The notes under the pieces: model-generated
Databases searched by the model: none
What the model was told of the DNA's origin: nothing
Seen by the model: the letters and a program-made list of their open reading frames with translations, nothing else
Assembly: GCA_038062455.1 (NCBI GenBank)
Contig: JBBTXE010000001.1
Span: 381,760 to 445,759, forward strand
Length of the DNA: 64,000 nt
Origin: Patescibacteria group bacterium
Lineage (GTDB): Bacteria > Patescibacteriota > Microgenomatia > UBA12405
Direction of reading: 5' to 3'
Shown here: in pieces, positions 33,188 to 49,188 of the stretch
How positions within the stretch are numbered: the stretch's first letter is position 1
Layout of the letters: every line of letters begins with the position of its first letter
Made by a program: the position numbers and the translations under genes

Positions 33188-33938
33188 CTATTTCCTAATT
33201 TCGGCAAAATTTAACCCTGACAGATAACTATCAATTTCTTCGTCATTCAAGCCTTCGGAAAAGTAAATTGATTGAAGCTCATTTTGCTTGTCACCCTTCG
33301 CTAATCGCCAATTACTTTTGATATTCCGGGAACTAACCGGTTTCCTGATTTCTTTCTTTTTAACCAACCTAATCACTTCGTCCAAATCTATCGCCAGTTT
33401 CTTATTGATCATTGAAAAATCGTAAAAATCACGGTATCTAACTCTGTCATTCATAGCCCGAATTTTTTCGGCTACAATTTCAGCAATATCCATAACCATC
33501 ACTTTGGCTTCCACCCCATATTGATTGTGATAAATCATTTCCCTGGGAGGCAAAACAACATTCTGAAGAAAATCAATTTCTACCTTAAGTGAATTTGGCT
33601 GGGCCAGGGGACCGGTATACAACAATCTTTCAATTTTATAGGTAGCATCAGAAACATAGAACCGACTTCACCTCCTCAAGATCAATTCCCGCCCGATTAG
33701 TCGAAAAGTCCAAATCTTCTGAAAACCTAAACTGCGGCAAATAGGTGTGATACAAAGCGGTACCACCCTTAAATATTAACTTTGTTTTTAACACTGAACC
33801 ATAGATTATCTTACACACCAGTGCCAAAAAATAATCCTTTTCGGCGATAGCTAAAGGATACTTAAGTTGACGGTTAAGAAGAGTTAAGGTAACTTTATCC
33901 AATAATTCGATTATCATAGTAAATTCGCCACTTAGCAT
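33188..33938 (-). pseudogene. AbiEii-like nucleotidyltransferase toxin, split by a frameshift into 96-aa and 145-aa ORFs
   Basis: The N-terminal fragment has FKGGTALYHTY...RFSEDLDFS. The C-terminal fragment aligns with the C-terminus of the intact paralog at 34790-35509. The frames differ across 33625-33648. Confidence 0.5.
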
Positions 33939-34668
33939 TAAATGTCTTTGATTCCTTCGTGAATCGGGATAAGCCTTTATTTTCCGCCAATATTCGGTAA
34001 AGCCCTTGGGTATTTACCCCCAACTGATCGAGAAAAAAACCAATTTTGCGTCTGATCGTCATATCAGATCTTAAAGCATAATTCTGTAACTTATTTAAAT
34101 CCAAACTTTCCTGATACTCTCTTAATTTTTCAAAAACTACACTGGCCGAAGTATAACTCTTATCCAGATATAGATAATCAATCAAAGCTTTTTCAACATC
34201 GGCAATTCTTACTATTTTTCCGGCCTCTATCTTTTGGGAAAAACCAAAAAACATATTCTCTTTAACTTTGGCAAATTTAAAGACAAAATCATCAAAAATG
34301 TATTTCTTGGAATCGGCAGTAGTCACTGACACAATAGTCTTAGAATATTGGTCAAACATATGATAATAATTAAGAGCATAGGAAAGACTAATATAAGAAC
34401 TCTTATTTAAAGCATTGGCGATAAGCATTAGCGAATTATCGTTTTGGAAACGAGAGCTTAAGTTTTCAATAACCAGATATAATCCCCGCTTAATTCGTTT
34501 CAACCAACCGGCCTTGGTTAGTTTTTGGATACGATTATGAGCCGACAAATTTGAATACTCAATTCTAAAAATAGTCATTAGATCATCAATACCCACAATT
34601 CGGCCGTATTTTAGGATTATCTGCTCGATTAAGTTAGTATCCTTTTCGGTTAAAATTGTAGTTTTCAT
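33895..34668 (-). CDS. AbiEi-like antitoxin / transcriptional regulator (wHTH N-terminus)
   Basis: KLTKAGWLKRIKRGLYLV is the AbiEi-type 'RGLY' wHTH motif. It is paired with the downstream nucleotidyltransferase gene. Confidence 0.5.
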   Translation of the reverse strand: MKTTILTEKDTNLIEQIILKYGRIVGIDDLMTIFRIEYSNLSAHNRIQKLTKAGWLKRIKRGLYLVIENLSSRFQNDNSLMLIANALNKSSYISLSYALNYYHMFDQYSKTIVSVTTADSKKYIFDDFVFKFAKVKENMFFGFSQKIEAGKIVRIADVEKALIDYLYLDKSYTSASVVFEKLREYQESLDLNKLQNYALRSDMTIRRKIGFFLDQLGVNTQGLYRILAENKGLSRFTKESKTFNAKWRIYYDNRIIG

Positions 34669-34741
34669 GGGTAAATATACACCTTTATTGATATATAACT
34701 GTAACTATTATATACAATATTGTCAAGAAAGAACAGATTCT

Positions 34742-34778
34742 AAAATCCTATCGAAAAAGATACATACTAATTACTTAT
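34742..34778. repeat. conserved 37-bp inter-module motif (copy 3)
   Basis: aaaatcctatcgaaaaagatacatactaattacttat. Confidence 0.7.
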
Positions 34779-34789
34779 TAATAACCCTA

Positions 34790-35509
34790 CTACATATTTC
34801 TACCTATCTCCCCTAAAAGACTTTTTTTTAAGTCGCGAACCATCATCGCCTGACTTCTCGGCAGAAACAAAGCCAACTCTGTCTCGAAATTAATTTCCTT
34901 CTTATTTAACAATTGTCTGACTTTTACCAATTGTTTCTTTTGGTTGGGAGACAATAGGTTGGCCCGAAGCATAAAATATAGATCATAAAAATCACGGGCT
35001 TTCTGTCTATCCAGTAACGCTGCCACTTTACTATCAACCAAATTCGCCGTCGCCAAACTCTTAATAAAATATGGGGCGGTAAAATCACTTTCAACTGTAA
35101 ACGCCTCACCTTCAACCATATCTTTTCGAAAAGATATTTCAAAGTGAATTTTTATCGGATCACCAACATGGCTCAAAATCACGATTCCTAAATATCCACC
35201 ACTGGTAGTTTTACTTTCTTCAATTTCTACTCCGATCCCTTCTCTCGATATATCCACCAAAACATCCTCTATAACCTGTTCCCAAGTCTGAAGTTTATGC
35301 ACTGTGGTATCGAAATCAAGATCTTCTGAAAAACGAGGACTTCGATAAAGAATTCTTAAGGCTGTTCCTCCTTTAAAATACAAATTACTTGACTGCTTCT
35401 TTTGGTATAAGTAACTTAACAATAAATGTTGGACATATTCCCGTCTGATATTTAATTCCGAAGTTTGAAATTTAACCGATGTTTTTTGTAAAAAAGACAG
35501 ACTAAGCAT
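34790..35509 (-). CDS. AbiEii/AbiGii-family nucleotidyltransferase toxin
   Basis: YFKGGTALRILYRSPRFSEDLDFD is the GGT...R.SEDLDF signature of the AbiEii (DUF1814) NTase family. Overlaps the upstream AbiEi gene by 8 nt. Confidence 0.65.
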   Translation of the reverse strand: MLSLSFLQKTSVKFQTSELNIRREYVQHLLLSYLYQKKQSSNLYFKGGTALRILYRSPRFSEDLDFDTTVHKLQTWEQVIEDVLVDISREGIGVEIEESKTTSGGYLGIVILSHVGDPIKIHFEISFRKDMVEGEAFTVESDFTAPYFIKSLATANLVDSKVAALLDRQKARDFYDLYFMLRANLLSPNQKKQLVKVRQLLNKKEINFETELALFLPRSQAMMVRDLKKSLLGEIGRNM

Positions 35510-36092
35510 ATTTATTAATTAATTTTATTAAAGATTTATTGTTAAATAAATTAGCATAAAACTGAATCTTTTTTTTATTCACCGACGATAAATCCAATCT
35601 CTCCAACCAAGCTCTTTTATTAAGTGACACCAGATACAAATAATCGATCACCGCCTTTTCCACTTCAGCCATCAAAAACCTTTTTTCATCTATAATCTTT
35701 AATTCATAACCGGTGTAAGCCTCCGGTTTAATTGTCGAATAGCTATATGTTTTGTCACTGGTTACAAATTCCCGCGTCGTTTTAGTGGTGGCGGAAGTAA
35801 CTTTGTAAACCATTTCCGGAACTAGATTATAATAAGCCAAAGCATACTCAAAAGAGACATAGGAAGGTCGATACAATCGATTGGCAATTTCCAGTTCTGA
35901 CGGTAAATCATTCTTTAGAGAATAAAGACCTCGTTTTATTTGACTAAACAAACCCTCTTTCAATCCTTTTTCCAAATAATAAAGGGATTGCCTTGAAGAT
36001 AAATTCAATAATTCACCTAATTCGCGAGCAGAAAATACTCTGGTATTACTTTCCAGTAAAATTTTTCTAATACTTAAACTTGATATAGCCAT
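35502..36092 (-). CDS. AbiEi-like antitoxin
   Basis: ARELGELLNLSSRQSLYYLEKGLKEGLFSQIKRGLYSL is the N-terminal wHTH of AbiEi. Confidence 0.55.
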   Translation of the reverse strand: MAISSLSIRKILLESNTRVFSARELGELLNLSSRQSLYYLEKGLKEGLFSQIKRGLYSLKNDLPSELEIANRLYRPSYVSFEYALAYYNLVPEMVYKVTSATTKTTREFVTSDKTYSYSTIKPEAYTGYELKIIDEKRFLMAEVEKAVIDYLYLVSLNKRAWLERLDLSSVNKKKIQFYANLFNNKSLIKLINKYA

Positions 36093-36162
36093 TTCATTTA
36101 TTACTTAAATAACTGTAATTAATGAAACAAGTATGGATTAATATTACCTTAATGTCAACCCT

Positions 36163-36199
36163 AAAATCCTCTAGAAAAAGATACATACTAGATACTTAT
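36163..36199. repeat. conserved 37-bp inter-module motif (copy 2)
   Basis: aaaatcctctagaaaaagatacatactagatacttat. Confidence 0.7.
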
Positions 36200-36205
36200 C
36201 TAAAA

Positions 36206-37054
36206 TTATCCGCTCAAATACTTCTTACTTTGATTATAATTATTATAAAAGTTTTCCACATACCCATCCAAAAGCAGGGGATTATCGATAAACGGCAATA
36301 AGTCTTGTTTAAAATATTGTTTACTGACTGTCGTTGCCATTTCCACCTTGTCATCAATTAAACTAATCAACTGACCTATCGAATAAGAACTTTTTAACAA
36401 ATCATTTAATCGATTTATATTGGGATATACTTTTTTATCTAAAAACCACAATAAATCAAAATAATCTCTACCTTTAATTACCCTAATATTTTCTTTTCCC
36501 AACAACCTCTGTCTTGTTAAAATAGTGGCGATTTTGCTAGCCATCAATGAAGGCAGGTCGTAGTGTGTCACCAAATAGTTAAAATTGTTAATATTTCTCA
36601 GAGTCGTAAGTTCACCATATATTTCTGAAACCATCGGCGATAAATCAATCTTTACATATAAGAGATCACTTTCGGCCGGTGTCGCCAAACCTAAATCTCT
36701 CAATACCGGAAACTTTAGAAGCAATTGCCAACCTTTTTGCAATACAGACACCGCTAAACCGTTATACATAAACTCGGTTTTAAAATAAGTTTCAACTGTC
36801 TTTTTCAAAATAGTCACGTCAACCGGTTTTTTTAGATCAAAATCCAGATCCTCAGACAGTCGATTTAAACCAAAACAATGTCGCAAACAAGTTCCGCCGG
36901 TAAACACAAACACCTTATTATAAATTTGGTTTAAATAAATAAAATTAAGAACATATATTTGTAAAAACTCTTTTAGCAAACTCCTGATATACAAATTCGA
37001 CTTATTCTGAATCCCTTGTTTATTTAAAAGCGATCTCATTTCTTCAATAATCAC
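36206..37054 (-). CDS. AbiEii-family nucleotidyltransferase toxin (paralog)
   Basis: FTGGTCLRHCFGLNRLSEDLDFD. Stop/start overlap with the upstream AbiEi gene. Confidence 0.6.
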   Translation of the reverse strand: MIIEEMRSLLNKQGIQNKSNLYIRSLLKEFLQIYVLNFIYLNQIYNKVFVFTGGTCLRHCFGLNRLSEDLDFDLKKPVDVTILKKTVETYFKTEFMYNGLAVSVLQKGWQLLLKFPVLRDLGLATPAESDLLYVKIDLSPMVSEIYGELTTLRNINNFNYLVTHYDLPSLMASKIATILTRQRLLGKENIRVIKGRDYFDLLWFLDKKVYPNINRLNDLLKSSYSIGQLISLIDDKVEMATTVSKQYFKQDLLPFIDNPLLLDGYVENFYNNYNQSKKYLSG

Positions 37055-37689
37055 TTCATTGTCTCCTTAAGGTAAACTACTAAATTAGTAAATTTCCCCA
37101 TCCCCGAAAGCTCCACTAAATATTTCAAATTTTCAAAATCGCTCACTGTTAAATCCTCTAAATTTAGCCTGAAAGAATCGATAACTTCTTGGTTAATTTC
37201 CGGCACTCTCCACAATCTAAAATATAAATAATCAAACAAAGCCTTCGTTTTTGTCGCCTCTTTTATTTCATATCCGGATTTAGAAACAATATTAAAACCA
37301 ATAAACAATTTATCTTTTATGTTTGAATATAAAAAAACACCTAATTTATTGTTGTAAACCCTAGTCTTTTTTCGGGTGACCGAAGTTATCGAGAACACCG
37401 CTTCGGACAATATTCCATATTTTTGCAGGACATATTCTCCGCTCAAATACGACGGTTTTTTAAGAATATTGGCTACAAATTCACTATAACTCTGTTTGTC
37501 ACCACATTGCGAATAATATTCCCGAGTTACATATATTCCTTTTTTTAATTGAATCAACCTCCCGCTATCTATCCACCGGGCAACATTTGCCGAAACAGCA
37601 TCATCACTACCCCCAATTACCTCTTTCAGAGTATTTTTGTCAAAAAAACTGGCAGAGGTTAACTTCGATAAATTACTAATCCTGTTCAT
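37051..37689 (-). CDS. AbiEi-like antitoxin (paralog)
   Basis: LIQLKKGIYVTREYY is a KRGxY-type wHTH. Its C-terminal domain resembles the other AbiEi copies (ALFDYLYF). Confidence 0.5.
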   Translation of the reverse strand: MNRISNLSKLTSASFFDKNTLKEVIGGSDDAVSANVARWIDSGRLIQLKKGIYVTREYYSQCGDKQSYSEFVANILKKPSYLSGEYVLQKYGILSEAVFSITSVTRKKTRVYNNKLGVFLYSNIKDKLFIGFNIVSKSGYEIKEATKTKALFDYLYFRLWRVPEINQEVIDSFRLNLEDLTVSDFENLKYLVELSGMGKFTNLVVYLKETMK

Positions 37690-37777
37690 ACTTATTTCAC
37701 AATTAATAGATAAAACATACTAATTGTGAAATATGATAATACTTTTATACTACTATGTCAATAACCCCAATCTTGAA

Positions 37778-37811
37778 ATCTTACAGAAAAAGATACATAC
37801 TCAATACTTAT
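37778..37811. repeat. conserved inter-module motif (copy 1, slightly diverged)
   Basis: aatcttacagaaaaagatacatactcaatacttat. Confidence 0.6.
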
Positions 37812-37831
37812 TTTCCCCCAACTTTATCAGC

Positions 37832-38449
37832 TTAAGATAAACTGACGGCAATAAGTTTTTGTCTAATCGTTTCATCATCAACGTCAAAGCCGGGCAAATA
37901 TTCAACCGATTCGGAATAATCAAGGTCTTGGTAATAGGCAAGCTGTTCCCGAAAAAGTTTTTCATCAAATTCGTTTTTATAAATGGAAATGGCTTTGACA
38001 ATAAGTTCTTTTAAGGAAAAAGATTGAAAAATAAAGAAAAGATCAACATAATCTTTCCATTTAGCGCGGCGTCCGAGGGCAAAAGCTTTCATAGCCGCGA
38101 TAGTCAAAGGGTCGGGTAAAGAAATAATGTCATTAAAATTAACTTGATGTTCAATCGGATATGGGTAACCGTAAAAGGTCATTTTGACGTTGTCAACTAA
38201 TAAAGTAAATTCTGTTCTCGTTTCAATCAAGATGCGATTAATTGTATGGCCCTGTTTAATATCAGAACGAATCCGTAGGCTATCAAATGATTTATCGGTA
38301 AAAAGGTCAAAGTCAATTGATCGTCGATGACCTAATTGTAAAGCCAGGGCAGTACCACCAACCAGGTAAAAAGAGGAAGAAAAAATTTTTACCAGAGGTA
38401 AAAGATCAGTTTGGGTTTTGACAAGAATATTAGGATACATATTTGGCAA
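37832..38449 (-). CDS. nucleotidyltransferase-fold protein (AbiEii-like / minimal NTase toxin-like)
   Basis: VGGTALALQLGHRRSIDFDLF has the GGTAL...R.S.D.D pattern. Confidence 0.45.
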   Translation of the reverse strand: MPNMYPNILVKTQTDLLPLVKIFSSSFYLVGGTALALQLGHRRSIDFDLFTDKSFDSLRIRSDIKQGHTINRILIETRTEFTLLVDNVKMTFYGYPYPIEHQVNFNDIISLPDPLTIAAMKAFALGRRAKWKDYVDLFFIFQSFSLKELIVKAISIYKNEFDEKLFREQLAYYQDLDYSESVEYLPGFDVDDETIRQKLIAVSLS

Positions 38450-38977
38450 AATAGTAAGTAAAATAATTTTTTGCTAAATAGTGAAGATTGCCGCGTTTTT
38501 GTAAAGCAAGTTTACTAAAAATATCTGCTAAAACTTTCGTCCCCAGCAAAGTACGGAGTTCTTGAAAATTATCCCAAGAACCGCAATTAAGAATCGCCTC
38601 AGTAATGGCTTCAGGCGAGAGATGGTCATAGTTTTTGGTGTACCAAATAAGGCCGGGGTTGTGGCGGATAATATCTCTAGCTTTGGTTAAGTCTGCATCC
38701 ATAAATCTAGTATACAACTTCAACTTTTTACAGAATCTAACGGAAAATTTAATACCAGTGACCAAAAAGCCAAAGATTTTTTGTTCCATCTGCCCCGAGG
38801 GATTGACAATGCTACCTCTCTTATTCCCATTTTGCCATAATTAGACATCGCCCAATCCGTTGCCTCTTTACTACCAAAGTTTAAAACTTGAGAAACAATT
38901 AACTTTCGATCCGCCACAATGTCAATTATATTAGTATCGTAGGACCAAAGTACTGATTTTACCGACTGAGGCAACAT
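38430..38977 (-). pseudogene. probable frameshifted partner gene of the 37832-38449 NTase (85-aa + 119-aa overlapping ORFs)
   Basis: Two ORFs overlap by 70 nt in different frames, consistent with one ~190-aa gene carrying a frameshift. No family assigned. Confidence 0.3.
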
Positions 38978-38997: not shown

Positions 38998-39489
38998 CTA
39001 TTTTCTCACCGCCACCTTGGTTTCAAAAGTCCAGGAATTGCCCCCACCGTCACCTCCGGTAACTCCTAAAGAAAACTTAAAATTAATAAGGGATATTTCC
39101 GTTGAAGGTAAAGTGGTGCAGTTTATAAATTCAGAACAATCAAAAATAGATACCCCCCCTCCCAGTAAATTATAAGTTCCCTGAGCTGACTGTGAAGCAA
39201 TTTTGTTGGCAGACTGATTACAAAACAATGTTGTTTGATCGCCGTTTTTGGTCTCAAACACAATTGCCGTTTCACCCACTCCGGTAAAACAGTTTATCCC
39301 CCCTTTGGCTTCTAACACATTTGCCTTTAACTTCTCCATCACCTTGGCCGCCTCCGCCTGAACCATTCCTGTTGTTTCAGCGCTCGTTTTGGCCTTAAAA
39401 AAACTGCCCAATATTCCCGTCACTGACACTACTAACACCCCAATTATTCCCACCGTCACCAAAATTTCCACCAAGGTAAAGCCTTTCAT
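38998..39489 (-). CDS. type IV pilin-like protein (prepilin N-terminal methylation motif)
   Basis: MKGFTLVEILVTVGIIGVL is a canonical G|FTLVE class III leader. Confidence 0.7.
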   Translation of the reverse strand: MKGFTLVEILVTVGIIGVLVVSVTGILGSFFKAKTSAETTGMVQAEAAKVMEKLKANVLEAKGGINCFTGVGETAIVFETKNGDQTTLFCNQSANKIASQSAQGTYNLLGGGVSIFDCSEFINCTTLPSTEISLINFKFSLGVTGGDGGGNSWTFETKVAVRK

Positions 39490-39917
39490 TGCCTGCTAAA
39501 AAACCGATTTAAATAAACACTTTGTGGACTTCTCCCCGAATAGCCAACCTCAATCACCGCCTCGGCACAATCAGTTTTTCCCACCCCGCAGCCGTTGGTG
39601 GTAATATTGGTCATTCCGATACTGTACTTATATCCATCAAAACCAGCGCGGGTATTATCGCTGCTGCTTGTTAGATTCCAAAAATTATCAACATCGTTTT
39701 GACTCTGGGAAATCAATTCTTCTATCACTATCGTTCCCAATTCCGTTGCTTTTCTCCGGTCAAAATTACTTTTTTTGTTACTCATGGTCATCACTATCAG
39801 TACCACTACTCCGGATAAAACCAAACCCAAAACTCCCAAGGCAAACACCCCTTCAATAATTCCCTGACCTCTATTCTTCGACATAGACACCGGATGAGAT
39901 TGATCCCAAAGCGTCAA
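39486..39917 (-). CDS. minor pilin-like protein (atypical leader)
   Basis: RGQGIIEGVFALGVLGLVL is a hydrophobic N-terminus. Translationally coupled within the pilin array. Confidence 0.4.
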   Translation of the reverse strand: MTLWDQSHPVSMSKNRGQGIIEGVFALGVLGLVLSGVVVLIVMTMSNKKSNFDRRKATELGTIVIEELISQSQNDVDNFWNLTSSSDNTRAGFDGYKYSIGMTNITTNGCGVGKTDCAEAVIEVGYSGRSPQSVYLNRFFSRQ

Positions 39918-40377
39918 TCGTTAAACTACTGTAACCCGATACTTCTTTGGAAGATCTAATAATTACTGTAGCCGTTGCCCCGGCTCCATACAAAGACCCG
40001 CTTACGTTTGTCGCCAGCTGACCATTACCTCCCCAATAATATAAAACCGCCGGAGACAAAGTCACTCCAATCCCGGTATTTACCAGTTTTTGACTAAAAT
40101 AAGTTGTCCCTACTCCATTTATTCCGGCCACCAAGTTGCCACTGATTACCCTGACTTCAACATACACCACATTCTCACTGCCGCCAGCCGGTCTTTGCCG
40201 GCTTTTGGCAAAATTCTGAGCCAAGCGTAAATTGGATACCACTTCTTCTTGTACTGATTTCAGTTTCTGCCGTTCATTAAAACGGTTAAAAAATACCATC
40301 CCCGTTCCCATAACCATCATCCCGATAGTTATCACTACCATCAATTCAATAAAAGTGAAACCGAAGCTAATTTTCAC
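39871..40377 (-). CDS. type IV pilin-like protein
   Basis: MKISFGFTFIELMVVITIGMMV. Confidence 0.65.
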   Translation of the reverse strand: MKISFGFTFIELMVVITIGMMVMGTGMVFFNRFNERQKLKSVQEEVVSNLRLAQNFAKSRQRPAGGSENVVYVEVRVISGNLVAGINGVGTTYFSQKLVNTGIGVTLSPAVLYYWGGNGQLATNVSGSLYGAGATATVIIRSSKEVSGYSSLTIDALGSISSGVYVEE

Positions 40378-40436: not shown

Positions 40437-40868
40437 TTATGGGTTTGTCACCCGATAGTTGCACGTCCCTCCGCAACCCGCCCCATAACTTCCATTAGTC
40501 GACCCCAAATCCTCCATCTTAGCATCCAAAGTATATTTATAGTTGTTACTGCCAACAACAATCAAATAACTATAAGTATCTCCTTTGGGGCCAGAGGGTA
40601 TAGCCTGAATATAATTCGGTGTCAAAGAGGTAATGACGCTTGGATATGTCGTTCCTGTCTGCCGCATTGCCTCCAACGCCAATCTCACTCTTTCTAAATC
40701 GCTTTGCCGTCTGGAATCCCGGGATTTCATATTGACTCCGGAAAAACTGACCACCCCAACCACCGAAACCACCATGATTATCGTTATCACTACGATCAAT
40801 TCAATTAAACTAAAAGCGTCATTCCCGCGAAAGCGGGAACCTATATTTGATTTTATTTCTTTTTTCAA
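40437..40868 (-). CDS. pseudopilin with extended leader MKKEIKSNIGSRFRGNDA|FSLIELIVV
   Basis: Prepilin-type N-terminus. The leader codons contain a P2 hairpin-palindrome (40821-40839). Confidence 0.65.
   Translation of the reverse strand: MKKEIKSNIGSRFRGNDAFSLIELIVVITIIMVVSVVGVVSFSGVNMKSRDSRRQSDLERVRLALEAMRQTGTTYPSVITSLTPNYIQAIPSGPKGDTYSYLIVVGSNNYKYTLDAKMEDLGSTNGSYGAGCGGTCNYRVTNP
40821..40839. repeat. P2 palindrome ttcccgcgaaagcgggaac in a pseudopilin leader (identical to the recG copy)
   Basis: Encodes GSRFRGN on the minus strand. Confidence 0.8.
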
Positions 40869-40897
40869 TTCGTAATTCGTAATTATTAATTCGTAAT
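40866..40897. repeat. tandem aattcgtaatt units in the pilin intergenic spacer
   Basis: aattcgtaattcgtaattattaattcgtaatt. Related TTCGTAATT units occur in the 43513 and 49788 repeats. Confidence 0.5.
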
Positions 40898-40901
40898 TAA
40901 C

Positions 40902-41366
40902 TTATTGTTGACTTTTAACACAGTAAAAACGCCCACTGGCCACAAAACTACAAGTATTCGTTGACGAATTCCCCAACGTTAAATCCTCGGTTGCTGCGCA
41001 AGCGCAGTAGGTGGTCGCAATATTGTAAACATAAGATGTCCCCCCCACCCCTTTTGGATCAGTCGGCCAAAGCTGCATTACTCCACTGGTCACAAATGCA
41101 CCCGTGGTCGCCGGATAAACATAACTATTTTGCGAATAATATTGCTCCGCCGCCTTCTGGATCGATCCCATATCAGAAATCCGCCGGCTGTCTCTGGCCT
41201 TTTTTTGAACCGAAGAATAAGACATAGTCGCAATCGCTACTAAAATAGCAATAATCGAGATACTGACTAACAATTCAAACAACGTAAAAGCTTCATTCCC
41301 GCGCCGTGCCTGCCGGCAGGCAGGAAAGCGGGAACCTATTTTTTTGTTCATATTTAATTTGCGCAA
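40902..41366 (-). CDS. pseudopilin with extended leader (..IGSRFPACRQARRGNEA|FTLFELLV)
   Basis: Prepilin N-terminus. Contains the extended P2 copy with an inner palindrome cctgccggcagg. Confidence 0.65.
   Translation of the reverse strand: MRKLNMNKKIGSRFPACRQARRGNEAFTLFELLVSISIIAILVAIATMSYSSVQKKARDSRRISDMGSIQKAAEQYYSQNSYVYPATTGAFVTSGVMQLWPTDPKGVGGTSYVYNIATTYCACAATEDLTLGNSSTNTCSFVASGRFYCVKSQQ
41296..41335. repeat. P2 palindrome, extended variant with nested inner palindrome (ttcccgcg-ccgtgcctgccggcaggcaggaaa-gcgggaac)
   Basis: Outer arms are identical to the other P2 copies. Confidence 0.7.
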
Positions 41367-41806
41367 ACAACATATAATTTATCAGTTGTTACTCCAATCC
41401 CACACTTCTTCTGTGAATTCACATCATCATCGCCCGCTCCCGATTCTAAATTCAAACGCAAATTAAAACCATCGCCATTATTGATTTGTTCATAAGTATA
41501 AGTATAGCCCAAATTCATAATTGAGGGCATATAAGCCGTCATTCCCACCCCCAAAGTTCCTCCGATTCCTGTGGGATACGCCTGGTTGTCGTTGTAGTAC
41601 AGTCTCAAGGAATTTTTAATGGCATTCATATCACTCACTCTTTGGGCATCGCGCGCCCTCTCCCGCGCTCCCATAAAATTTGGCAAAGTTATTGCCGAAA
41701 TTACTGCAATAATGCTAATCACCACCAACAGTTCCACCAGCGAAAAACCACTATCCCCGCGCACGCGGGGACCTATATATATACTATTGTAAATTACCAT
41801 CAGCAT
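41354..41806 (-). CDS. pseudopilin with leader ..IGPRVRGDSG|FSLVELLVV
   Basis: Prepilin N-terminus. P2 variant tccccgcgcacgcgggga at 41744-41761. Confidence 0.65.
   Translation of the reverse strand: MLMVIYNSIYIGPRVRGDSGFSLVELLVVISIIAVISAITLPNFMGARERARDAQRVSDMNAIKNSLRLYYNDNQAYPTGIGGTLGVGMTAYMPSIMNLGYTYTYEQINNGDGFNLRLNLESGAGDDDVNSQKKCGIGVTTDKLYVVCAN
41744..41761. repeat. P2 palindrome variant tccccgcg-ca-cgcgggga
   Basis: 8-bp GC arms. Encodes GPRVRG. Confidence 0.7.
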
Positions 41807-42308
41807 CTAAACTAGTATTCGGGGAAACATAGGCAAAACAATAAGAATTAGTACTGCCGCCGCAATCGTAAGTCACGGGGTTTAGGCATTCTTTATCGAC
41901 GGTATTTTCCAACATCGCCAACAGAGCGTATTTCTTTTTATAAGTATCGGTTTTATAGCAATAAGGCGGCGCCCCAATTTTGTTTTCCCGGGGTAATATC
42001 TTCATATACACATAACCTCCATCATTAAACTCACTCCCCCAATCTATGGCCGCGCCTCCTATCATAATTTTTCCAGCCGGATTAGCCGCCGGGAATATAC
42101 CATAATCGGTAAAATACATCTGCAATGCCTTGGCTACCCCGTTTAAATCCGACTTTCTAGCCACATCGTTGGCTTTTTTCTTGGCCGTCTGAAACTGCGA
42201 CACGGTAATTGTCACCAAAATCATCATTATGGCCACCACAATCAACAATTCTACTAAAGTAAAACCCCTGTTCCCGCAAAAGCGGGAACCTATATATTTT
42301 CCCTTCAT
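41784..42308 (-). CDS. pseudopilin with leader MKGKYIGSRFCGNRG|FTLVELLIV
   Basis: Prepilin N-terminus. P2 copy at 42271-42289. Confidence 0.65.
   Translation of the reverse strand: MKGKYIGSRFCGNRGFTLVELLIVVAIMMILVTITVSQFQTAKKKANDVARKSDLNGVAKALQMYFTDYGIFPAANPAGKIMIGGAAIDWGSEFNDGGYVYMKILPRENKIGAPPYCYKTDTYKKKYALLAMLENTVDKECLNPVTYDCGGSTNSYCFAYVSPNTSLDADGNLQ
42271..42289. repeat. P2 palindrome ttcccgcaaaagcgggaac
   Basis: Arms ttcccgc/gcgggaa with loop aaaa. Confidence 0.75.
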
Positions 42309-42332
42309 TATTTATTTAAATCTATCACACTT

Positions 42333-42358
42333 AAATTAGAAATTAGAAATTAGAAATT
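42333..42358. repeat. tandem aattagaa octamer x3 upstream of the pilin gene
   Basis: aattagaaattagaaattagaaatt in the 50-bp spacer. Confidence 0.55.
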
Positions 42359-43060
42359 TTACTTACATCCCTCTCCGCAACAAGAAACCAGGCAGGAGCT
42401 CTTACAAATGCCCAGATAACAATTCGGTCCGACACAACCAGCAATCGCGTTACAGATCTCAACACCCGGCTGATAATAACATCCGCCATAAGCGGCACAT
42501 TCCGGATTGGCACGATAATCACTCCAGACTACGTTAGGACTCGACACTCCGAAATTCGCCGTTTCTGCCGTCGAATTTCCTCCTAATGTTCGATATTCCC
42601 AACCTGCACCCTGATTCCAACCCGGAGGGATATCAGTATCACTTTGGTTTTCCAATTTGGTTAATATTTTAAACCACTTCGAACAATTATCAATTATTAC
42701 TGGAAAAGGTGTTTCCACCACAATTTGGTATGGAATCCTGCCAGGATCACATTGCCAAGGTGACAACCAGGGATTAAAAACAATCCTACTGCCACAATTT
42801 AATTGATCCATTAGTGATGAGCCAATTCCAACAGACGGGTAACAGCCCTTATCACTGTAATACTCCTCAAAAGCTACTTTAATTCGCCCTATATCCTTTT
42901 TCCTCCTAGCATCCCGAGCTTTATTAAACACTCCCGCTGAATTAAATATCCCAACAGCCATCACTATCATAACCACCAAGATTGCCATAACAATTAAAAT
43001 TTCCACCAAAGTAAAAGCGTTATTCCCGCGGACGCGGGAACCCATCCATTTTTTCTTCAT
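42359..43060 (-). CDS. pseudopilin (233 aa, Cys-rich C-terminus) with leader MKKKWMGSRVRGNNA|FTLVEILIV
   Basis: Prepilin N-terminus. P2 copy at 43024-43042. Confidence 0.65.
   Translation of the reverse strand: MKKKWMGSRVRGNNAFTLVEILIVMAILVVMIVMAVGIFNSAGVFNKARDARRKKDIGRIKVAFEEYYSDKGCYPSVGIGSSLMDQLNCGSRIVFNPWLSPWQCDPGRIPYQIVVETPFPVIIDNCSKWFKILTKLENQSDTDIPPGWNQGAGWEYRTLGGNSTAETANFGVSSPNVVWSDYRANPECAAYGGCYYQPGVEICNAIAGCVGPNCYLGICKSSCLVSCCGEGCK
43024..43042. repeat. P2 palindrome ttcccgcggacgcgggaac
   Basis: The flank gggaacccatcca is shared with the recG copy. Confidence 0.75.
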
Positions 43061-43872
43061 CTAAATAAATTTACCATATTAATTATCTTTTCTCCCCATC
43101 CAAAAGCCACTCCTGTCCCCAAAATCAAAAACGGCCCAAAAGGAATCGGGTCAGTCTTTTTATTTTTTTTCAATATCAAAAGTATTACCGATACCAACGC
43201 CCCAACCACAAAGGCCAAATAGCCAGCTACCACCACTTTGGGAAATCCCAAAAAAAGACCGGAAAATATGGCATATTTAACATCGCCCATCCCCATTGCC
43301 TCTGATCCCCGAATCCTGATTCTATTCAGGATAAAAAAGAAACTCCCGCTTCCCACCCCTGACAATAAATACACCCAATAGTTTTCCCGACCAACCAACA
43401 TCGCCAAAGCCAATCCTATTAACAAATAATTAGCCATATCCGGCAAAATCATGTATTTCAAATCAAACACCAAAGAAAAAATCAACAAAGAGGTAATTAA
43501 TAAATACATTATTAATTCGTAATTTTGAGCCATGCGAAATCCTGTGGACGTAATTCGTAATTCGTAATTTAATAGAAATAATAACCCAGTCATTATTTCT
43601 ATTACCGGATATTCCCGGGGCAGGGGATTATCGCAACATCTTGTTTTTCCTTTCTGCATTACCCACGACAATACCGGTATATTTTCATACCACTTCAGCT
43701 GTTTCCCGCAATAATCACAAAAGGACCGACCACCAAAGTCATTGCGAGGAATCCGCCGTGGCGGACGACGAAGCAATCTGTATTTTACCGCCGTCCGATA
43801 CACCATCATATTAATAAAACTCCCCACCGCCAATCCCAAAACAAAAATCATTATTCCCAAAAACATTCCCAC
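43057..43872 (-). CDS. pilD: prepilin peptidase (A24 family)
   Basis: CDYCGKQLKWYENIPVLSWVMQKGKTRCC is the N-terminal zinc-binding Cys motif. MGMGDVKYAIFSGLFLGFP is the second catalytic Asp region. Multiple TM helices. Confidence 0.8.
   Translation of the reverse strand: MGMFLGIMIFVLGLAVGSFINMMVYRTAVKYRLLRRPPRRIPRNDFGGRSFCDYCGKQLKWYENIPVLSWVMQKGKTRCCDNPLPREYPVIEIMTGLLFLLNYELRITSTGFRMAQNYELIMYLLITSLLIFSLVFDLKYMILPDMANYLLIGLALAMLVGRENYWVYLLSGVGSGSFFFILNRIRIRGSEAMGMGDVKYAIFSGLFLGFPKVVVAGYLAFVVGALVSVILLILKKNKKTDPIPFGPFLILGTGVAFGWGEKIINMVNLFR
43513..43570. repeat. 58-bp repeat (taattcgtaattttgagccatgcgaaatcctgtggacgtaatt...) lying in frame inside pilD; second copy at 49788-49835
   Basis: ~41 bp identical to the intergenic copy plus related TTCGTAATT tails. 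Encodes NYELRITSTGFRMAQNYELI. Confidence 0.75.
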
Positions 43873-43885: not shown

Positions 43886-43911
43886 CTAAAAAACCCCCGC
43901 CACAGCGGGGG
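43886..43911 (-). terminator. rho-independent terminator downstream of pilA (minus strand)
   Basis: On the minus strand, hairpin cccccgc-tgtg-gcggggg is followed by TTTTTAGTTT. Confidence 0.6.
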
Positions 43912-43931
43912 TTCCAAAAACCAGATCTAAA

Positions 43932-44603
43932 TTAGATATTTCCCTCTGGTACACACAAAAGATTAGCCCTTGTCGCCGCCGGCAATAAATCAGCCGTCGT
44001 TGTCCAATTCGTTTCAGTCATAGCGATACAAAGACCTGCATTACCCCCCAGGTTATATAAAGCAGCACTAGCCCCAGAAGCCGGATTCATGCATTTTAAA
44101 TTAGCCGCCACACTACCGGACCGATTAGCTTTAGCCTTAGGTACAAAACAAACATAGTTTGAATCCGACCCGTTGTGATACACATACAACCGGTCAACTC
44201 CAGCCACAGCCGTCGTAAAAGGTTCTTTGCCTACAAACGAAGTTTTAAGTTCCGAAGTCTTGATCAGCTCGCCATTCGTGGTTCCAACCCCACCCGCTCC
44301 CAGAACTCCAAACAGCGGATCAGTGCCTCCCACCGCAATCTTCGTTCCTGAATCCACTGTCGTGCCCACTCCCAGACTAACCGAATTCCAGGGATAATTA
44401 TTTTGTGAAGCAAAATACCTCTCATAGGCCGACAATACCTCGGCCGCATCATTCTTAAACTTAGCATCCCGAGCTTTATTAGTCTGCTCAATTGGGTTAA
44501 TCGTCGCCAACACCGCCACTGACAAAATGGCAATTAAAGCTATAACTATTAAGAGTTCCACCAAGGTGAAACCAGTACTTACTGCATTTTTTATTCTTTT
44601 CAT
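43932..44603 (-). CDS. pilA: major type IV pilin (canonical leader MKRIKNAVSTG|FTLVELLIV)
   Basis: Classical G|F cleavage site and an N-methyl-Phe hydrophobic helix. Followed by a strong terminator. Confidence 0.7.
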   Translation of the reverse strand: MKRIKNAVSTGFTLVELLIVIALIAILSVAVLATINPIEQTNKARDAKFKNDAAEVLSAYERYFASQNNYPWNSVSLGVGTTVDSGTKIAVGGTDPLFGVLGAGGVGTTNGELIKTSELKTSFVGKEPFTTAVAGVDRLYVYHNGSDSNYVCFVPKAKANRSGSVAANLKCMNPASGASAALYNLGGNAGLCIAMTETNWTTTADLLPAATRANLLCVPEGNI

Positions 44604-44620: not shown

Positions 44621-45835
44621 TTAAAAGGAACTTGTCAAATTATAAATCGGCATTACCACCGCCACCACCAGAAATCCCACCCCGATACCTAAAACCATCA
44701 TGATCAATGGTTCAATGGCCGCCGTGAGCGACGCCACCGCCTGTTCGGCCTCAGTCGAAAAATAACTGGCCACCTTTAAAAGTACTTCATCCAATTTCCC
44801 GGTTGCCTCCCCGGTGGCTATCATTTGAGTTACTATTACCGGAAATACGGCTGTATTTTCAAAAGACGCCGAAATGTTAAACCCTTTTTGGACTCTTTCG
44901 GCAATATTCAAGTAGGCTTTTTTATAAATCTCGTTTCCGGCCACCGTCGCCACTATTCTTAAAGCCTCTACCAGTGGTATTCCGGCTGTCAAAAGCATTG
45001 ACAGCGTCCGGCAGGTATTGGCCATCACCGATACCGAAATTAATTTACCGGCAATCGGAAATTTCAGCATATACTTATCCTTGTTGTATCTAAAACCGGC
45101 ATTTTTCGCCCCAAATTTAAATAATAAATACCCGCCCCCGATTACTGTCGGAAACAAAAACCAAAATTTAGCCATTAGTCCCGACACCGCCATCAGGCCC
45201 CGGGTAAGAACTGGCATCTTAGCTGTCCCAAAATCAGCATAAAGGCCAGTTAGTTTAGGGATTACAAAAATCATCATAATAAACACCACTATAATCATGC
45301 CGATAATTACAATGACAGGATAGATCATGGCTCCCTTAATTTTCCCCTTAAATTCATTTTCGTTTTCCAAATTAGTCGCCAATTTCCCCATTATTTCCTC
45401 CAATACTCCGGCCTCCTCACCCGCCGAAATTGAGGCTACATAGGCTTCCCCAAAAATGTTTTTTGATTTTAAAAGTGACTTTCCCAACGCCATCCCTCCC
45501 CGGACATCATCTAAAGTAGTCTCTAGTATATGATACAAACCTCCACTCTCTTCCTGTTGGTTTTTTAACAAAGCTAACGAATCGGTCAGAGGTAACCCCG
45601 CCGCCATCATGGTAGCTAATTGCCGGGTCAAGGCGGCTACTTGTTTTGAAGTTACCCTTCCCTTTATTTTTCTGACAAACTCCGAGGCTAAATCACCGCT
45701 TTTCAACCACACCCCCAAAGGCACTAAACCATTGGCCCGCAATGATTCCACCACCCCTTTTTCATTGGACGAATCCATTTCCCCTTTAACTATTTTTCCT
45801 CCCCAATCCTTTGACCGATAAACATATTTAGCCAT
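44621..45835 (-). CDS. pilC: type IV pilus inner-membrane platform protein PilC (two T2SSF domains)
   Basis: 404 aa with a duplicated GspF-type domain and TM helices. The C-terminus is ...MPIYNLTSSF. Confidence 0.75.
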   Translation of the reverse strand: MAKYVYRSKDWGGKIVKGEMDSSNEKGVVESLRANGLVPLGVWLKSGDLASEFVRKIKGRVTSKQVAALTRQLATMMAAGLPLTDSLALLKNQQEESGGLYHILETTLDDVRGGMALGKSLLKSKNIFGEAYVASISAGEEAGVLEEIMGKLATNLENENEFKGKIKGAMIYPVIVIIGMIIVVFIMMIFVIPKLTGLYADFGTAKMPVLTRGLMAVSGLMAKFWFLFPTVIGGGYLLFKFGAKNAGFRYNKDKYMLKFPIAGKLISVSVMANTCRTLSMLLTAGIPLVEALRIVATVAGNEIYKKAYLNIAERVQKGFNISASFENTAVFPVIVTQMIATGEATGKLDEVLLKVASYFSTEAEQAVASLTAAIEPLIMMVLGIGVGFLVVAVVMPIYNLTSSF

Positions 45836-46904
45836 TTTCTGCCGTTTTCATTCTTAAATTACTTTGTAACTCCAAAGGCTTCAGGGCATATTCCATCGCC
45901 ACCGCTTCTTCTATTTGATTGTTTCGTACCAATTTTGCCAGCGACATTTCCAAACTAATCATCCCCAAATCGCTTCCGGTTTGGATGACATTATCAATCA
46001 TAAATGTTTTCCCCTCCCGAATCATGTTTCGGACAGCGCTGGTTACCACCAATATCTCCACTGCCGGCGCCCGGCCGCCGTTTTTTGTTGGTACCAATCT
46101 TTGGGAAATTACCGCCATCAATACCGATGCTAATTGAGTTCTGATTTGGGACTTTGACCCTTCGGGAAATACATCAATAATCCGATCAATTGTCTGTGAG
46201 GCCGAATTGGTATGCAAAGTCGAAAAAACCAAATGTCCGGTTTCAGCCACAGTTAAAGCGAGCTGAATTGTTTCCAAATCTCTCATCTCTCCCACAAACA
46301 CCACATTCGGGTCCTGGCGCAATACCGAGCGAAGAGCTTTTCCAAAACTTTTTGTATCTCCCCCCAACTCCCGTTGGGCAATTAGCGCCTTTACCGGTTT
46401 GATTATATATTCCACCGGGTCCTCGATAGTCACTATATGACAGCTATTGTTCATATTTATTTCATTAATCATTGCCGCCACTGTAGTTGACTTTCCCTGT
46501 CCTGTCGGGCCCGTCACCAAAACTAAACCCTGCTTGCTTTTCAGAAAAGTTTTTAACACCAGGGGCATACCTAAACTGTCCAACACCGGTACTTGGGCCG
46601 GAATCACCCTCAACACCGCCCCCACTCGACCGCTTTGCCGATACATATTACATCTAAATCGACTATCTTCCAGACTGATTGAAAAATCCAGTTCTTTTTC
46701 TTCGGCAAAATATTTTTGTTGCTCCTCATTCAATAATGACGAAATCATGTCCTGCATATTCTCCGTACCGGAAAAAGAAAAATTTCCCACTACCTGCAAT
46801 TTCCCGTTTATCCGAAAAGACGGCGCTGTTTCCGAAGATAAATGGACATCTGATGCCTTATTAACCACCGCCAGTTTTAATAATTCTTCAATTTTTGAAT
46901 GCAT
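45828..46904 (-). CDS. pilT: twitching-motility retraction ATPase PilT
   Basis: GPTGQGKSTT is Walker A. The Asp box, His box and the compact 358-aa length are typical of PilT rather than PilB. Confidence 0.75.
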   Translation of the reverse strand: MHSKIEELLKLAVVNKASDVHLSSETAPSFRINGKLQVVGNFSFSGTENMQDMISSLLNEEQQKYFAEEKELDFSISLEDSRFRCNMYRQSGRVGAVLRVIPAQVPVLDSLGMPLVLKTFLKSKQGLVLVTGPTGQGKSTTVAAMINEINMNNSCHIVTIEDPVEYIIKPVKALIAQRELGGDTKSFGKALRSVLRQDPNVVFVGEMRDLETIQLALTVAETGHLVFSTLHTNSASQTIDRIIDVFPEGSKSQIRTQLASVLMAVISQRLVPTKNGGRAPAVEILVVTSAVRNMIREGKTFMIDNVIQTGSDLGMISLEMSLAKLVRNNQIEEAVAMEYALKPLELQSNLRMKTAENG

Positions 46905-47324: not shown

Positions 47325-47362
47325 ATACTTAATACTTGATACTTAATACATAATACTAGTAT
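47325..47362. repeat. TACTTAATAC tandem decamers 5' of the four-helix-bundle gene
   Basis: atacttaatacttgatacttaatacataatactagtat. Confidence 0.6.
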
Positions 47363-49188
47363 TGAGCCACCCGAAGTACTTCCTCAATTGTGGTCACTCC
47401 CTCTAAAACTTTAACATAACCGTCTTGTTTCATCGTCAACATTCCCCCATCCATCGCCTGCTTTTGTATTACCGCCGCCGAGGCCTTTTCTACTACCAAT
47501 TTAGCAATCCGCTCACTTATAGGCATCACCTCATAAATAGCAATTCTCCCTAAATATCCAGTAGTATTACATTTATCACAACCAACCGGTTTTGGCACTG
47601 TCATCGCTTTACCCTCCTTTTTCCACTTGTCAGTCACCATTTCATAAATCGGACCCAAGGTGTCTTTTAATTCTTTTTCTACTTCCGCCGCCATTTCCGT
47701 TTGAGTAACGCAATTGGGGCAAACTTTTCTTAGCACCCGCTGGGCCACCACACAAGTTAAGGCTGAGGTTAATAAAAACGGTTCCACCCCCATATCCAAC
47801 ATCCGCGGCGGGGCTCCGGAGGCATCATTAGTATGCAAAGTCGAAAAAACCAAATGTCCGGTCAGCGAGGCATTAATTGCCAACTCCGCCGTCTCTGTAT
47901 CCCGAATTTCTCCTACCATAATCACATTTGGATCCTGCCGCAAAAAAGACCGTAAGGCCGAAGCGAAGGTTAAACCCGCCTGAACATTAACCTGGACTTG
48001 GTTAACCCCCTTCATCTGATACTCCACCGGATCCTCAATTGTCACCACATTTACCTTTGACGTCGCCACCTTGTTCAGAACCGAATACAAGGTTGTCGTC
48101 TTACCCGAACCGGTTGGTCCGCAAACGATAATAATTCCGTGAGGCCGCTCAATGGCTTCGACTAAATTTTTCAGAGCCAGCCCCCGCAGTCCCAATTCCG
48201 GCAGTGAGGGCACCTTCTGTGCTTTCCGGAGAAGCCGCATCACCACTTTTTCTCCATAAGATACCGGCAGTGTTGAAATCCGCAAATCCACCTCATTGCC
48301 ATCCGATAAAAAATTAAAACGGCCGTCCTGAGGCACCCGTTTCTCATCAATTTTTAAATTCGACAAAATCTTTACCCGTGACACCACCGCCTCCGATACG
48401 TTTCGGGGTAATACATATTTTTCCTGCAATATTCCATCAATCCGGTAACGAATCCGAACATTGTCCTCCATCGGCTCAATATGAATATCAGATGCTCTGG
48501 ATTTAAAGGCATATTCCAAAATTGTCGTTACAATTTTGGCAATTGGCGCTTCCGCTGATACCCGACGTCTTTTTTCATTTTCTACCTTTATTTCGTCAAC
48601 TTTTTGTTCATCCAAAGCCTTAGTTACTTCCGAAGTTATTCCCTTTTCTCTCTCATATTTTTCCCGGATAAAAGAGTTAATCTGCTTGGCCTCGGCCATT
48701 ACTGTTTTTATTTTCAAACCGGTTTTCTTTTCCAGAAATTCCACCGTTTCCAAATCCAGCGGATTACTCATCGCCACCCACAGGGACTTATCCTTGGGAT
48801 CCATCTGATAGGGGACTATGATATATTTTTCAGCCACACTCTGAGGTACCAATGCCAATGCTTCGGGAGCAAATCCGATGGTGGATAGATCAATAAAAGG
48901 AACCCTTAAAAATTCTGCCTTAGCTTTGATAAAATCGAAATCGCTCACCAGTCTCATTTGCAAAATTACTTCCTCCTCGCTCTCACCGCTTCCTACCTGA
49001 CGCAATTTTATTTCCTCGGACTTTTCCGGAGTTATCAGACCCTTGGCCACCAGCACCTCAGCTAGATGTTTGTATACCTTATCAGCCGGGGGCAGTTGAT
49101 TCATACTATAATCATAGTAACCTATGATGCTTTTTCCTTCAACACTTATTATCGGAAAAAACCCCAAACTCTCTGAAGAAAGTGTCAA
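47356..49188 (-). CDS. pilB: type IV pilus assembly ATPase PilB (GspE family, with N-terminal T2SSE_N domain)
   Basis: GPTGSGKTTTLY is Walker A. A CxxC...CxxC tetracysteine motif (CPNC..CDKC) is present. The N-terminal domain is ~150 aa. Confidence 0.8.
   Translation of the reverse strand: MTLSSESLGFFPIISVEGKSIIGYYDYSMNQLPPADKVYKHLAEVLVAKGLITPEKSEEIKLRQVGSGESEEEVILQMRLVSDFDFIKAKAEFLRVPFIDLSTIGFAPEALALVPQSVAEKYIIVPYQMDPKDKSLWVAMSNPLDLETVEFLEKKTGLKIKTVMAEAKQINSFIREKYEREKGITSEVTKALDEQKVDEIKVENEKRRRVSAEAPIAKIVTTILEYAFKSRASDIHIEPMEDNVRIRYRIDGILQEKYVLPRNVSEAVVSRVKILSNLKIDEKRVPQDGRFNFLSDGNEVDLRISTLPVSYGEKVVMRLLRKAQKVPSLPELGLRGLALKNLVEAIERPHGIIIVCGPTGSGKTTTLYSVLNKVATSKVNVVTIEDPVEYQMKGVNQVQVNVQAGLTFASALRSFLRQDPNVIMVGEIRDTETAELAINASLTGHLVFSTLHTNDASGAPPRMLDMGVEPFLLTSALTCVVAQRVLRKVCPNCVTQTEMAAEVEKELKDTLGPIYEMVTDKWKKEGKAMTVPKPVGCDKCNTTGYLGRIAIYEVMPISERIAKLVVEKASAAVIQKQAMDGGMLTMKQDGYVKVLEGVTTIEEVLRVAQY

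Follow-up and report, generated by a model that had tools for sequence, protein, structure and literature searches.

Why should five neighboring genes carry the same GC-rich hairpin within the codons of their leader peptides? The question arises in a 64,000-nucleotide stretch of the genome of a Patescibacteria group bacterium (assembly GCA_038062455.1, contig JBBTXE010000001.1, positions 381,760 to 445,759; "the window" below means this whole stretch). A type IV pilus cluster spans 38.9–49.2 kb of the window on the minus strand, and within it five tandem minor prepilin genes, g5 down to g1, fill positions 40437–43060. A 30-nt palindromic repeat with a 7–8 bp GC stem lies in the leader codons of each of the five, and all five hairpins that an earlier sequence-only reading had reported there, under the name P2, proved to be present. 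We identify the P2 hairpin as a repetitive extragenic palindrome (REP) of the CGTC-1 type, the family of Rickettsia RPE-6 and Neisseria dRS3. The explanation that we favor, and consider probable, is that these copies are selfish elements tolerated in the leader codons of minor prepilins, where the leader would be discarded by the prepilin peptidase PilD.

Identity and copies of the repeat

CGTC-1 REPs, known as RPE-6 in Rickettsia conorii and as dRS3 in Neisseria, are defined by an unpaired CGTC tag (with variants TGTC and CCTC), an 8-bp stem with complementary A/T at its first and second positions, a 4-nt loop and a CCA tail (Di Nocera, De Gregorio & Rocco 2013, PMC3733652). The window repeat consists of a CGTC tag, ATTCCCGC, a 4-nt loop, GCGGGAA(T/C) and a CCA/CCT tail, and our assignment to the CGTC-1 type follows from the fit of tag, stem, loop and tail to the published description. 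The tag is CGTC in g1 of the window (40817–40820), in all copies of the related loci L001 and L024, and in g1 of a third relative, L023; it is TGTC in a more distant locus (L009), AGTC in a copy within recG, and degenerate in g2–g5 of the window (CTTC, CACT, CCCT and CGTT). The stem ATTCCCGC-N4-GCGGGAAT is perfect in L023 g1, L024 g2 and L009, while the window copies have seven perfect base pairs and an outermost pair that is G.U or G-C on the sense strand. Every copy but the one in g2, which holds a nested palindrome, has a loop of 4 nt. The tail is CCATCC in g5 and recG and CCA in L009, and the CCTAT of g1–g4 is a one-base variant. The encoded peptides agree too: intragenic CGTC-1 elements of R. 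conorii encode HSRFRGND, DSRFRGND, DSRLRGND, CHSRESGNP and VIPAKAGI (PMC3733652 supplementary file 4), and we find GSRFRGND in pilin leaders of the window, GSRLRGND and DSRLRGND in relatives, and HSRESGNP in recG.

The likeness to CGTC-1 REPs therefore covers both anatomy and core peptides, and it extends to location. CGTC-1 REPs, for which no dedicated transposase is known, occur inside genes, and intragenic REPs concentrate at N-termini and in genes for replication and repair, a DNA ligase gene among them (PMC3733652); the copies in recG and ligA agree with this pattern. The window repeat differs in its host, a Shapirobacteria-like member of the Candidate Phyla Radiation (CPR), a phylum group outside the survey of PMC3733652; in occurring within the 64-kb window only as singletons, where CGTC-1 elements often form head-to-head dimers; in its first stem pair, usually A.C or G.U; and in the placement of 5/7 local copies in prepilin leader codons. 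Literature searches turned up no earlier description of REPs in CPR or within pilin leaders, and Rfam gave nothing above threshold, its weak rsmX and group I intron matches being attributable to chance. We also considered a DNA uptake sequence and rejected it, as the copies are too few and not dispersed.

All pilin copies are annotated on the plus strand and all five genes lie on the minus strand. In g1 (40437–40868; TTG start; leader MKKEIKSNIGSRFRGNDA|FSLIE), the 30-nt copy at 40817–40846 reads CGTC tag, stem ATTCCCGC, loop GAAA, stem GCGGGAAC and tail CTATAT; its hairpin core, TTCCCGC-GAAA-GCGGGAA, occupies 40822–40839, and its tag strand is antisense to the gene. For the gene g2 (40902–41351; leader MNKKIGSRFPACRQARRGNEA|FTLFE), the ATG at 41351 is a likelier start than the TTG at 41366 that the open reading frame (ORF) list and the sequence-only reading had given. 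Its copy at 41291–41339 is extended, with a second palindrome, GCCTGCCGGCAGGC (41308–41321), nested in the loop of the hairpin TTCCCGC...GCGGGAA at 41296–41334, a net gain of 21 nt that keeps the reading frame. In g3 (41354–41806; leader MLMVIYNSIYIGPRVRGDSG|FSLVE), the copy at 41749–41778 has stem ATCCCCGC/GCGGGGAC and loop GCAC, with C-G rather than T-A as its second stem pair (hairpin TCCCCGC-GCAC-GCGGGGA at 41754–41771). The copy at 42266–42295 in g4 (41784–42308; leader MKGKYIGSRFCGNRG|FTLVE) has an 8-bp stem, GTTCCCGC/GCGGGAAC, around the loop AAAA (hairpin 42270–42289). Finally, g5 (42359–43060; leader MKKKWMGSRVRGNNA|FTLVE) encodes a 233-aa protein with a Cys-rich C-terminus and has its copy at 43018–43047, with a CGTT tag, ATTCCCGC, GGAC, GCGGGAAC and the same CCATCC tail as the recG copy (hairpin TTCCCGC-GGAC-GCGGGAA at 43023–43040). 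Folded as RNA, the hairpins reach −11 to −13.5 kcal/mol, and the extended g2 form −23 kcal/mol. All five leaders read (I/M)G(S/P)R-x-(R/C)G(N/D)-x-(A/G)|F(T/S)L-x-E, and 5/5 proteins, g1, g3 and g4 among them, score above the gathering threshold of Pfam N_methyl (PF07963).

Two further copies lie outside the pilus cluster, both annotated on the plus strand. The one in recG (20079–20108) is in frame between helicase motifs II and III, encodes HSRESGNP in the same reading phase as the pilin leaders, and has its tag strand in the sense direction; it is a true family member. The one in the NAD-dependent ligase gene ligA (51848–51866) is a related palindrome with a 5-nt loop, in frame but read in another phase (VPRLTRD). 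The identity that the sequence-only reading saw between the pilin hairpins and both of these copies therefore holds for recG, and ligA has to be counted as a variant; with that amendment, its notion of a mobile-type palindrome common to pilins, recG and ligA is supported by family identity and by presence and absence in relatives. The motif YCCCGC-N4-GCGGGR has eight matches in the window versus 0.3 expected (0/100 shuffles reached eight), of which 3/8 are other GC palindromes, including a terminator 3′ of the major pilin. A relaxed pattern search of the 64-kb window found no 4-nt-loop copies besides those in pilins and the one in recG. The total is seven copies in 64 kb (five pilin, recG and the ligA variant), all singletons and all intragenic.

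Gain, loss and predicted processing at the leader site

We compared the window with nine syntenic clusters, L001 and L022–L029. A DNA pattern scan of species-representative genomes returned 21 loci, with clear pilin-leader REPs only in L009 and in L001 (two sites), a Candidatus Shapirobacteria metagenome-assembled genome (MAG) that has the same arrangement and is syntenic with the window; L003 (Verrucomicrobia) was ambiguous, and the other loci were chance or terminator-like. A hairpin-blind scan using the mature part of the g3 protein recovered seven metagenomic loci, and an exact-protein look-up found L029, a syntenic cluster in GCA_046128295.1 (contig JBJSVZ010085771.1, 1626–6791). Nucleotide identity of the clusters to the window is 100% for L022, 82–91% for L023 and ~70% for L024/L001; L024 and L025/L026 are 78–87% identical to each other.

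At each of the five genes, the leader is occupied in some clusters and empty in others. The g5 leader has a REP in the window only and is empty (MKKKG|F and similar) in L023, L024, L025, L026 and L027; since the orthologs in L023–L027 all lack it, the g5 copy is a recent gain. In g4, a REP is present in the window, L023 and L024, L027 instead has a 20-nt palindrome, CCTGCCTGCCGGCAGGCAGG (LPAGRQG|F), and L025 and L028 are empty (MKRG|F, MKKG|F). In g3, REPs occur in the window/L022, L001/L024 and L026, with a different palindrome in L023, an AT-rich insert in L025, and empty leaders in L027 and L028. The g2 leader has the nested REP in the window and a simple one (TTCCCGT-TTTC-ACGGGAA) in L001/L024, and is empty in L023 (MIRQRA|F), L025, L026, L027 and L028. 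The g1 leader has a REP in the window, L023 and L001/L024, a palindrome of another family in L028 (VIARSE...RND), and none in L025, L027 and two protein-level orthologs (P0001, P0002). L029 has the window's gene order and no REP in any pilin. In the window the major pilin has a short G|F leader and no hairpin, as the sequence-only reading had noted, and it lacks the REP in every relative as well. Empty sites have short leaders of canonical form (MKKKG|F, MKRG|F, MKKG|F, MRKA|F), and removal of the net insert of 30 nt in g5 and g2 restores a canonical leader of 4–7 residues; in g1 the net insert is 33 nt.

The same site is occupied in a distant lineage. In a minor pilin of Vogelbacteria (Parcubacteria; L009), TGTC-ATTCCCGC-GCCG-GCGGGAAT-CCA-GGC|TTT (HSRAGGNPG|FTLLE) stands directly before the G|F site, in the orientation opposite to that of the window copies. 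Presence and absence among relatives, the other palindromes and this reverse orientation together indicate that several palindrome families have repeatedly come and gone at the leader-coding segment, in either orientation.

Protein-level searches reached less far. A word-indexed search with the g1 leader and helix returned only two orthologs, both without the motif, and is uninformative on spread; a synthetic consensus query, built from the leader motif and a generic pilin helix, yielded ordinary pilins, with 0/120 REP leaders among the matches listed; and a profile search across 1.84 billion representatives, in which the mature helix dominated, gave no SRxRGN leaders. In the leaders of CPR pilins, the profile search did return peptides that look like those of other palindromes (PAGRQG|F, IASS..LLAMT..G|F), including "MPAGRQG|F" leaders in three unrelated CPR pilins (P0033, P0034 and P0082). 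The ambiguous Verrucomicrobia locus, a Terrimicrobiaceae MAG (1524–1562, minus strand), has a pilin-like ORF, …RRSRVRGVFA|FSLVEILVV…, with a GC hairpin and a T-run before A|F; this hairpin could be an upstream terminator that overlaps the leader rather than a REP.

The extended leaders end in recognizable processing sites. The locus combines the N_methyl motif (Gly/Ala at −1, Phe+1, Glu+5 and a hydrophobic helix) with a cognate A24 peptidase and assembly genes, and the five sites read A|FSLIE, A|FTLFE, G|FSLVE, G|FTLVE and A|FTLVE. The Ala at −1 on which the sequence-only reading had remarked is therefore real in three genes, the other two having Gly, and it is not atypical: Ala before Phe+1 is normal in hairpin-free relatives (MRKA|FTLIE, MIRQRA|FTLFE, MKKNKA|FTLFE, MSKA|FTLIE), and in L029 it precedes Phe in every pilin with a recognizable prepilin site, including the major pilin (MRKA|FTLVE). 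PilD enzymes cut after Gly or Ala (PMC3244431). The PilD of the window (43057–43872, minus strand; Pfam A24_N_bact and Peptidase_A24) is an ordinary A24 peptidase that is well conserved among relatives. Because no in-frame ATG, GTG or TTG lies between the hairpin and Phe+1 in g1–g5, the REP must be translated within the leader, and we rejected a downstream alternative start on the same ground. The gene g3 alone has an in-frame GTG within the hairpin loop (41761–41763, minus strand), which as a start would give MRGDSG|F, a canonical short leader. We likewise rejected translational bypassing as in T4 gene 60; the hairpin contains no stop, and take-off and landing codons are not conserved.

Competing explanations

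What the copies conserve was examined in 12 REPs from the window or from loci retrieved with the mature g3 protein (L023–L026). All 96/96 stem cells form standard pairs, and two pairs show compensatory changes. At the second stem pair, nine copies have U-A and three (window g3, L023 g4 and L024 g4) have C-G, which replaces Ser by Pro and Asn by Asp; L024 g2 closes its stem with U-A in place of C-G, an Arg-to-His change; and the outermost pair varies among G.U, G-C and A-U, with U.G in one copy. Between the window and L024 (~70% nucleotide identity), loops differ at about the background rate, whereas the only stem changes are compensated pairs. Because stem changes are compensatory and alter the peptide, the conserved entity is the pairing, i.e., the nucleic acid, and not the protein. 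Relatives either keep the palindrome with peptide-changing compensation or lack the segment altogether; the motif in non-palindromic codons, which the sequence-only reading had named as evidence for selection on the protein, was looked for in them and never found.

Under the explanation that we favor, REP copies would have entered the five minor prepilin genes in frame, immediately before the codons for (Gly/Ala)|Phe cleavage. Alternatively, they may have spread by gene conversion between the 5′ ends of paralogs: the helix-coding sequences there are near-identical, which may help such spread, and nucleotide comparison of the clusters shows cross-paralog matches among pilin genes. Copies would persist at the leader since the encoded segment is cut off by PilD; a stop-free, in-frame, net positive extension of 8–15 residues (SRxRGN...) ending in Gly or Ala would be harmless, and insertions elsewhere in the tightly packed, gap-free operon would be purged. 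The reading phase used, S-R-x-R-G-N, is the most positive of three stop-free phases and would be compatible with a class III signal peptide. The hairpin is translated through, and its distance from the start codon is too great for it to interfere with 30S binding. The same tolerance could cover the other palindrome families and the reverse-orientation REP found at this spot in other CPR lineages.

Several observations weigh against this explanation. The removal of REP-extended leaders by PilD, on which it depends, is a step that we infer from sequence. The concentration of 5/7 copies within ~0.4% of the 64 kb is an enrichment so strong that tolerance alone may not explain it. No transposase or insertion mechanism was identified in these 64 kb of genome, and no clean target-site duplication or exact target-site rule could be derived from the filled and empty pairs. 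Lastly, compensation restricted to stems, with two G.U wobble positions on the sense strand, looks like a constraint on an RNA hairpin. The same pairing pattern could, in turn, arise without host selection, by REP-type conversion or template-switch "self-correction"; template-switch correction of quasi-palindromes is known from E. coli. The REP copies are also related by descent, so the pairing counts are not independent events.

The alternative that survives best, which we nevertheless hold to be rather unlikely, is that the REPs have been co-opted on the polycistronic mRNA of pilD and the minor pilins, as barriers to 3′-to-5′ decay or as ribosome-stalling elements that set minor-pilin stoichiometry, the leader codons being the sole place for a hairpin in a gap-free operon. 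Each hairpin lies 12–69 nt downstream of the preceding gene's stop codon, the typical position of unidirectional REPs, and G-T pairing in REP stems has been taken as a sign of RNA function (PMC3733652); the perfect stems in 12/12 copies, their compensatory changes and the sense-strand G.U pairs fit this, as do the convergence of unrelated palindromes on the same site and the constant absence of the hairpin from the major pilin. An ordinary REP-like effect on the mRNA of the upstream cistron is possible. Co-option is harder to reconcile with close relatives that do without hairpins (none in L029, none in four genes of L025), with the opposite orientation of the Vogelbacteria copy and with the mid-gene copies in recG and ligA. 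A broader version, in which palindromes in CPR land preferentially in prepilin leader codons, REP hairpins have been co-opted as intercistronic RNA elements that tune minor-pilin ratios, and the peptidase erases the coding cost, seems to us similarly doubtful.

A brake by the hairpin on the initiation of minor-pilin translation, a form of the modulation that the sequence-only reading had proposed, is improbable. Stable hairpins (−11 to −23 kcal/mol) do lie within the first 60 nt of each ORF, in minor pilins and not in the major pilin. But where the proposal had placed them 15–40 nt after the start codon, the stems in fact begin 18–36 nt from its first base (g2 at +18, g4/g5 at +20/21, g1 at +30 and g3 at +36), which is at or past the edge of the usual 30S footprint. 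Accessibility, computed as the ensemble energy needed to open positions −20 to +15, was essentially the same with the hairpin and with it deleted (4.0 and 4.6 kcal/mol in g1, 6.6 and 8.6 in g2, 11.0 and 10.4 in g3, 5.6 and 5.2 in g4, and 5.2 and 6.4 in g5), i.e., 4.0–11.0 kcal/mol with it and 4.6–10.4 without, versus 5.5 kcal/mol in the hairpin-free major pilin; the difference is only −2.0 to +0.6 kcal/mol. In minimum free energy folds the hairpin closes on itself and forms no pairs with the start region. Stem distance, near-unchanged opening energy and the self-contained fold thus leave an initiation block unsupported, and orthologs in close relatives have no hairpin. The hairpins do not resemble terminators either: on the sense strand only that of g3 is weakly flagged, and the UUUU of the Phe codon comes 7–8 nt past the stem, not immediately after it.

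A DNA recognition site, whether the operator of a pilus and recombination regulon (pilins, recG and ligA) or a site for shuffling pilin cassettes, is less probable still. The perfect 7-4-7 inverted repeat, the copies flanking each pilin cassette and the location of the other two copies in DNA-repair genes would suit it. However, the copies sit within ORFs, mid-gene in recG and ligA; symmetric compensation and G.T positions fit a hairpin and not a protein-bound duplex; all relatives share the gene order, which gives no hint of shuffling; and no recombinase adjoins the cluster. Together with presence and absence in close relatives and a repeat family that recurs in unrelated genes across phyla, this makes the shared recognition sequence suggested by the sequence-only reading unlikely. 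Least credible of all is selection on the protein, with GSRFRGN favored as a special long leader for PilD recognition or delayed processing: all pilin copies share a reading phase and add two Arg, which would suit a positively charged class III signal peptide, but the pairing persists through changes of the peptide (SRFRGN, PRVRGD, SRFCGN, SRFHGN, SRLRGN), CGC encodes the first Arg in 11/12 copies yet makes up only ~13% of Arg codons in the window's genes, and orthologs manage without the segment.

Neighboring features and wider meaning

The rest of the pilus cluster, all on the minus strand, comprises genes for a PilB-like ATPase (47359–49209), a PilT-like ATPase (45828–46904), PilC (44621–45835) and the major pilin (43932–44603; short leader MKRIKNAVSTG|F). 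An intrinsic terminator-like hairpin with a T-run (43890–43915) follows the major pilin; it is another GC palindrome and not a REP copy. Beyond g1 lie three small genes, of which those at 38998–39489 and 39871–40377 pass N_methyl and the ORF at 39486–39917 has no Pfam match, so that two of the three "other pilin-like genes" of the sequence-only reading stand. Directly downstream of the pilin cluster are repeated two-gene modules (33898–38473), in which one gene encodes an AbiEii-type nucleotidyltransferase toxin (34793–35518); gene pairs similar to these modules also follow the pilin cluster in L001 (3314–6228).

Further palindromes and repeats accompany the REPs. The CCTGCCTGCCGGCAGGCAGG family (CCTGCC..GGCAGG; peptide PAGRQ) looks mobile in its own right: it is the palindrome nested in the g2 REP loop (41308–41321), occurs alone in the L027 g4 leader (~2690–2715), and lies upstream of another pilin in L001/L024 (L001 ~1815–1835). 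Within PilD, an in-frame GC palindrome at 43736–43775, cattgcgaggaatccgccgtggcggacgacgaagcaatc, of the "GTCATTGCGAGG..." type, encodes RRPPRRIPRND in the loop between the first transmembrane segment and the Cys motif, where relatives have unrelated sequence of varying length. Near its C-terminal part, ligA has in frame a GTAG-tagged 10-bp palindrome, GTAGAGACGC-ACGATCGC-GCGTCTCTAC (53089–53116; …ETHDRASLQ…), and therefore contains two different palindromes. AT-rich tandem motifs, TTCGTAA/AATTACG heptamers (translating to "NYELRIT") and AAATTAG repeats, are found between pilin genes and in frame inside PilD (NYELRITS...NYEL) at 40862–40900, 42336–42358, 43505–43520 and 43548–43572, and upstream of pilins in L001, L023 and L027. 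Far from the cluster, a 22-nt inverted pair, GTGGCAGATGGCCGACTGCCAC/GTGGCAGTCGGCCATCTGCCAC (2974–2995 and 4538–4559), brackets a large serine recombinase gene (ORF 3094–4644; Pfam Resolvase, Recombinase and Zn_ribbon_recom), which may be a small mobile or invertible unit.

Other known systems resemble the leader hairpins in part. RPE-1 elements of Rickettsia, reportedly described by Ogata et al. in 2000 as palindromic elements in frame in protein genes, are likewise selfish palindromes that survive in ORFs as stop-free insertions in tolerant protein segments, some of them translated at N-termini; they are much longer and their surface peptide stays in the mature protein, whereas the REP segment of the window is presumably cut off with the leader. 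E. coli REP and bacterial interspersed mosaic element (BIME) hairpins are said to protect mRNA 3′ ends (Newbury et al. in 1987), and stop-proximal REPs are said to stall ribosomes (Liang, Rudd & Deutscher in 2015). The window copies share with these a GC hairpin a few to tens of nucleotides past a cistron's stop, within a polycistronic unit; the E. coli elements are intergenic and of GTAG type, and the hairpins here overlap the coding sequence of the next gene. Long-leader (type IVb-like) prepilins have a comparable positive leader of 15–26 residues, Gly/Ala at −1 and Phe+1...Glu+5. The length in the window differs in origin, as it comes from recent repeat insertion into a short type IVa-like leader and does not mark a conserved family of long leaders, the orthologs having leaders of 4–7 residues.

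Our overall reading is that the leader hairpins are selfish DNA in a disposable coding segment and no new regulatory device or mechanism. It extends the CGTC REP superfamily to a new host clade, CPR, and points to a new type of tolerant site, in which selfish palindromes survive in compact genomes within a coding segment that is proteolytically discarded. It would also explain the odd "long-leader" pilins and the SRFRGND-, PAGRQ- and LLAMT-type peptides in CPR gene calls, and warns against taking them for new classes of signal peptide. If the hairpins do shape the fate of the operon mRNA, they would offer a simple handle on minor-pilin stoichiometry.

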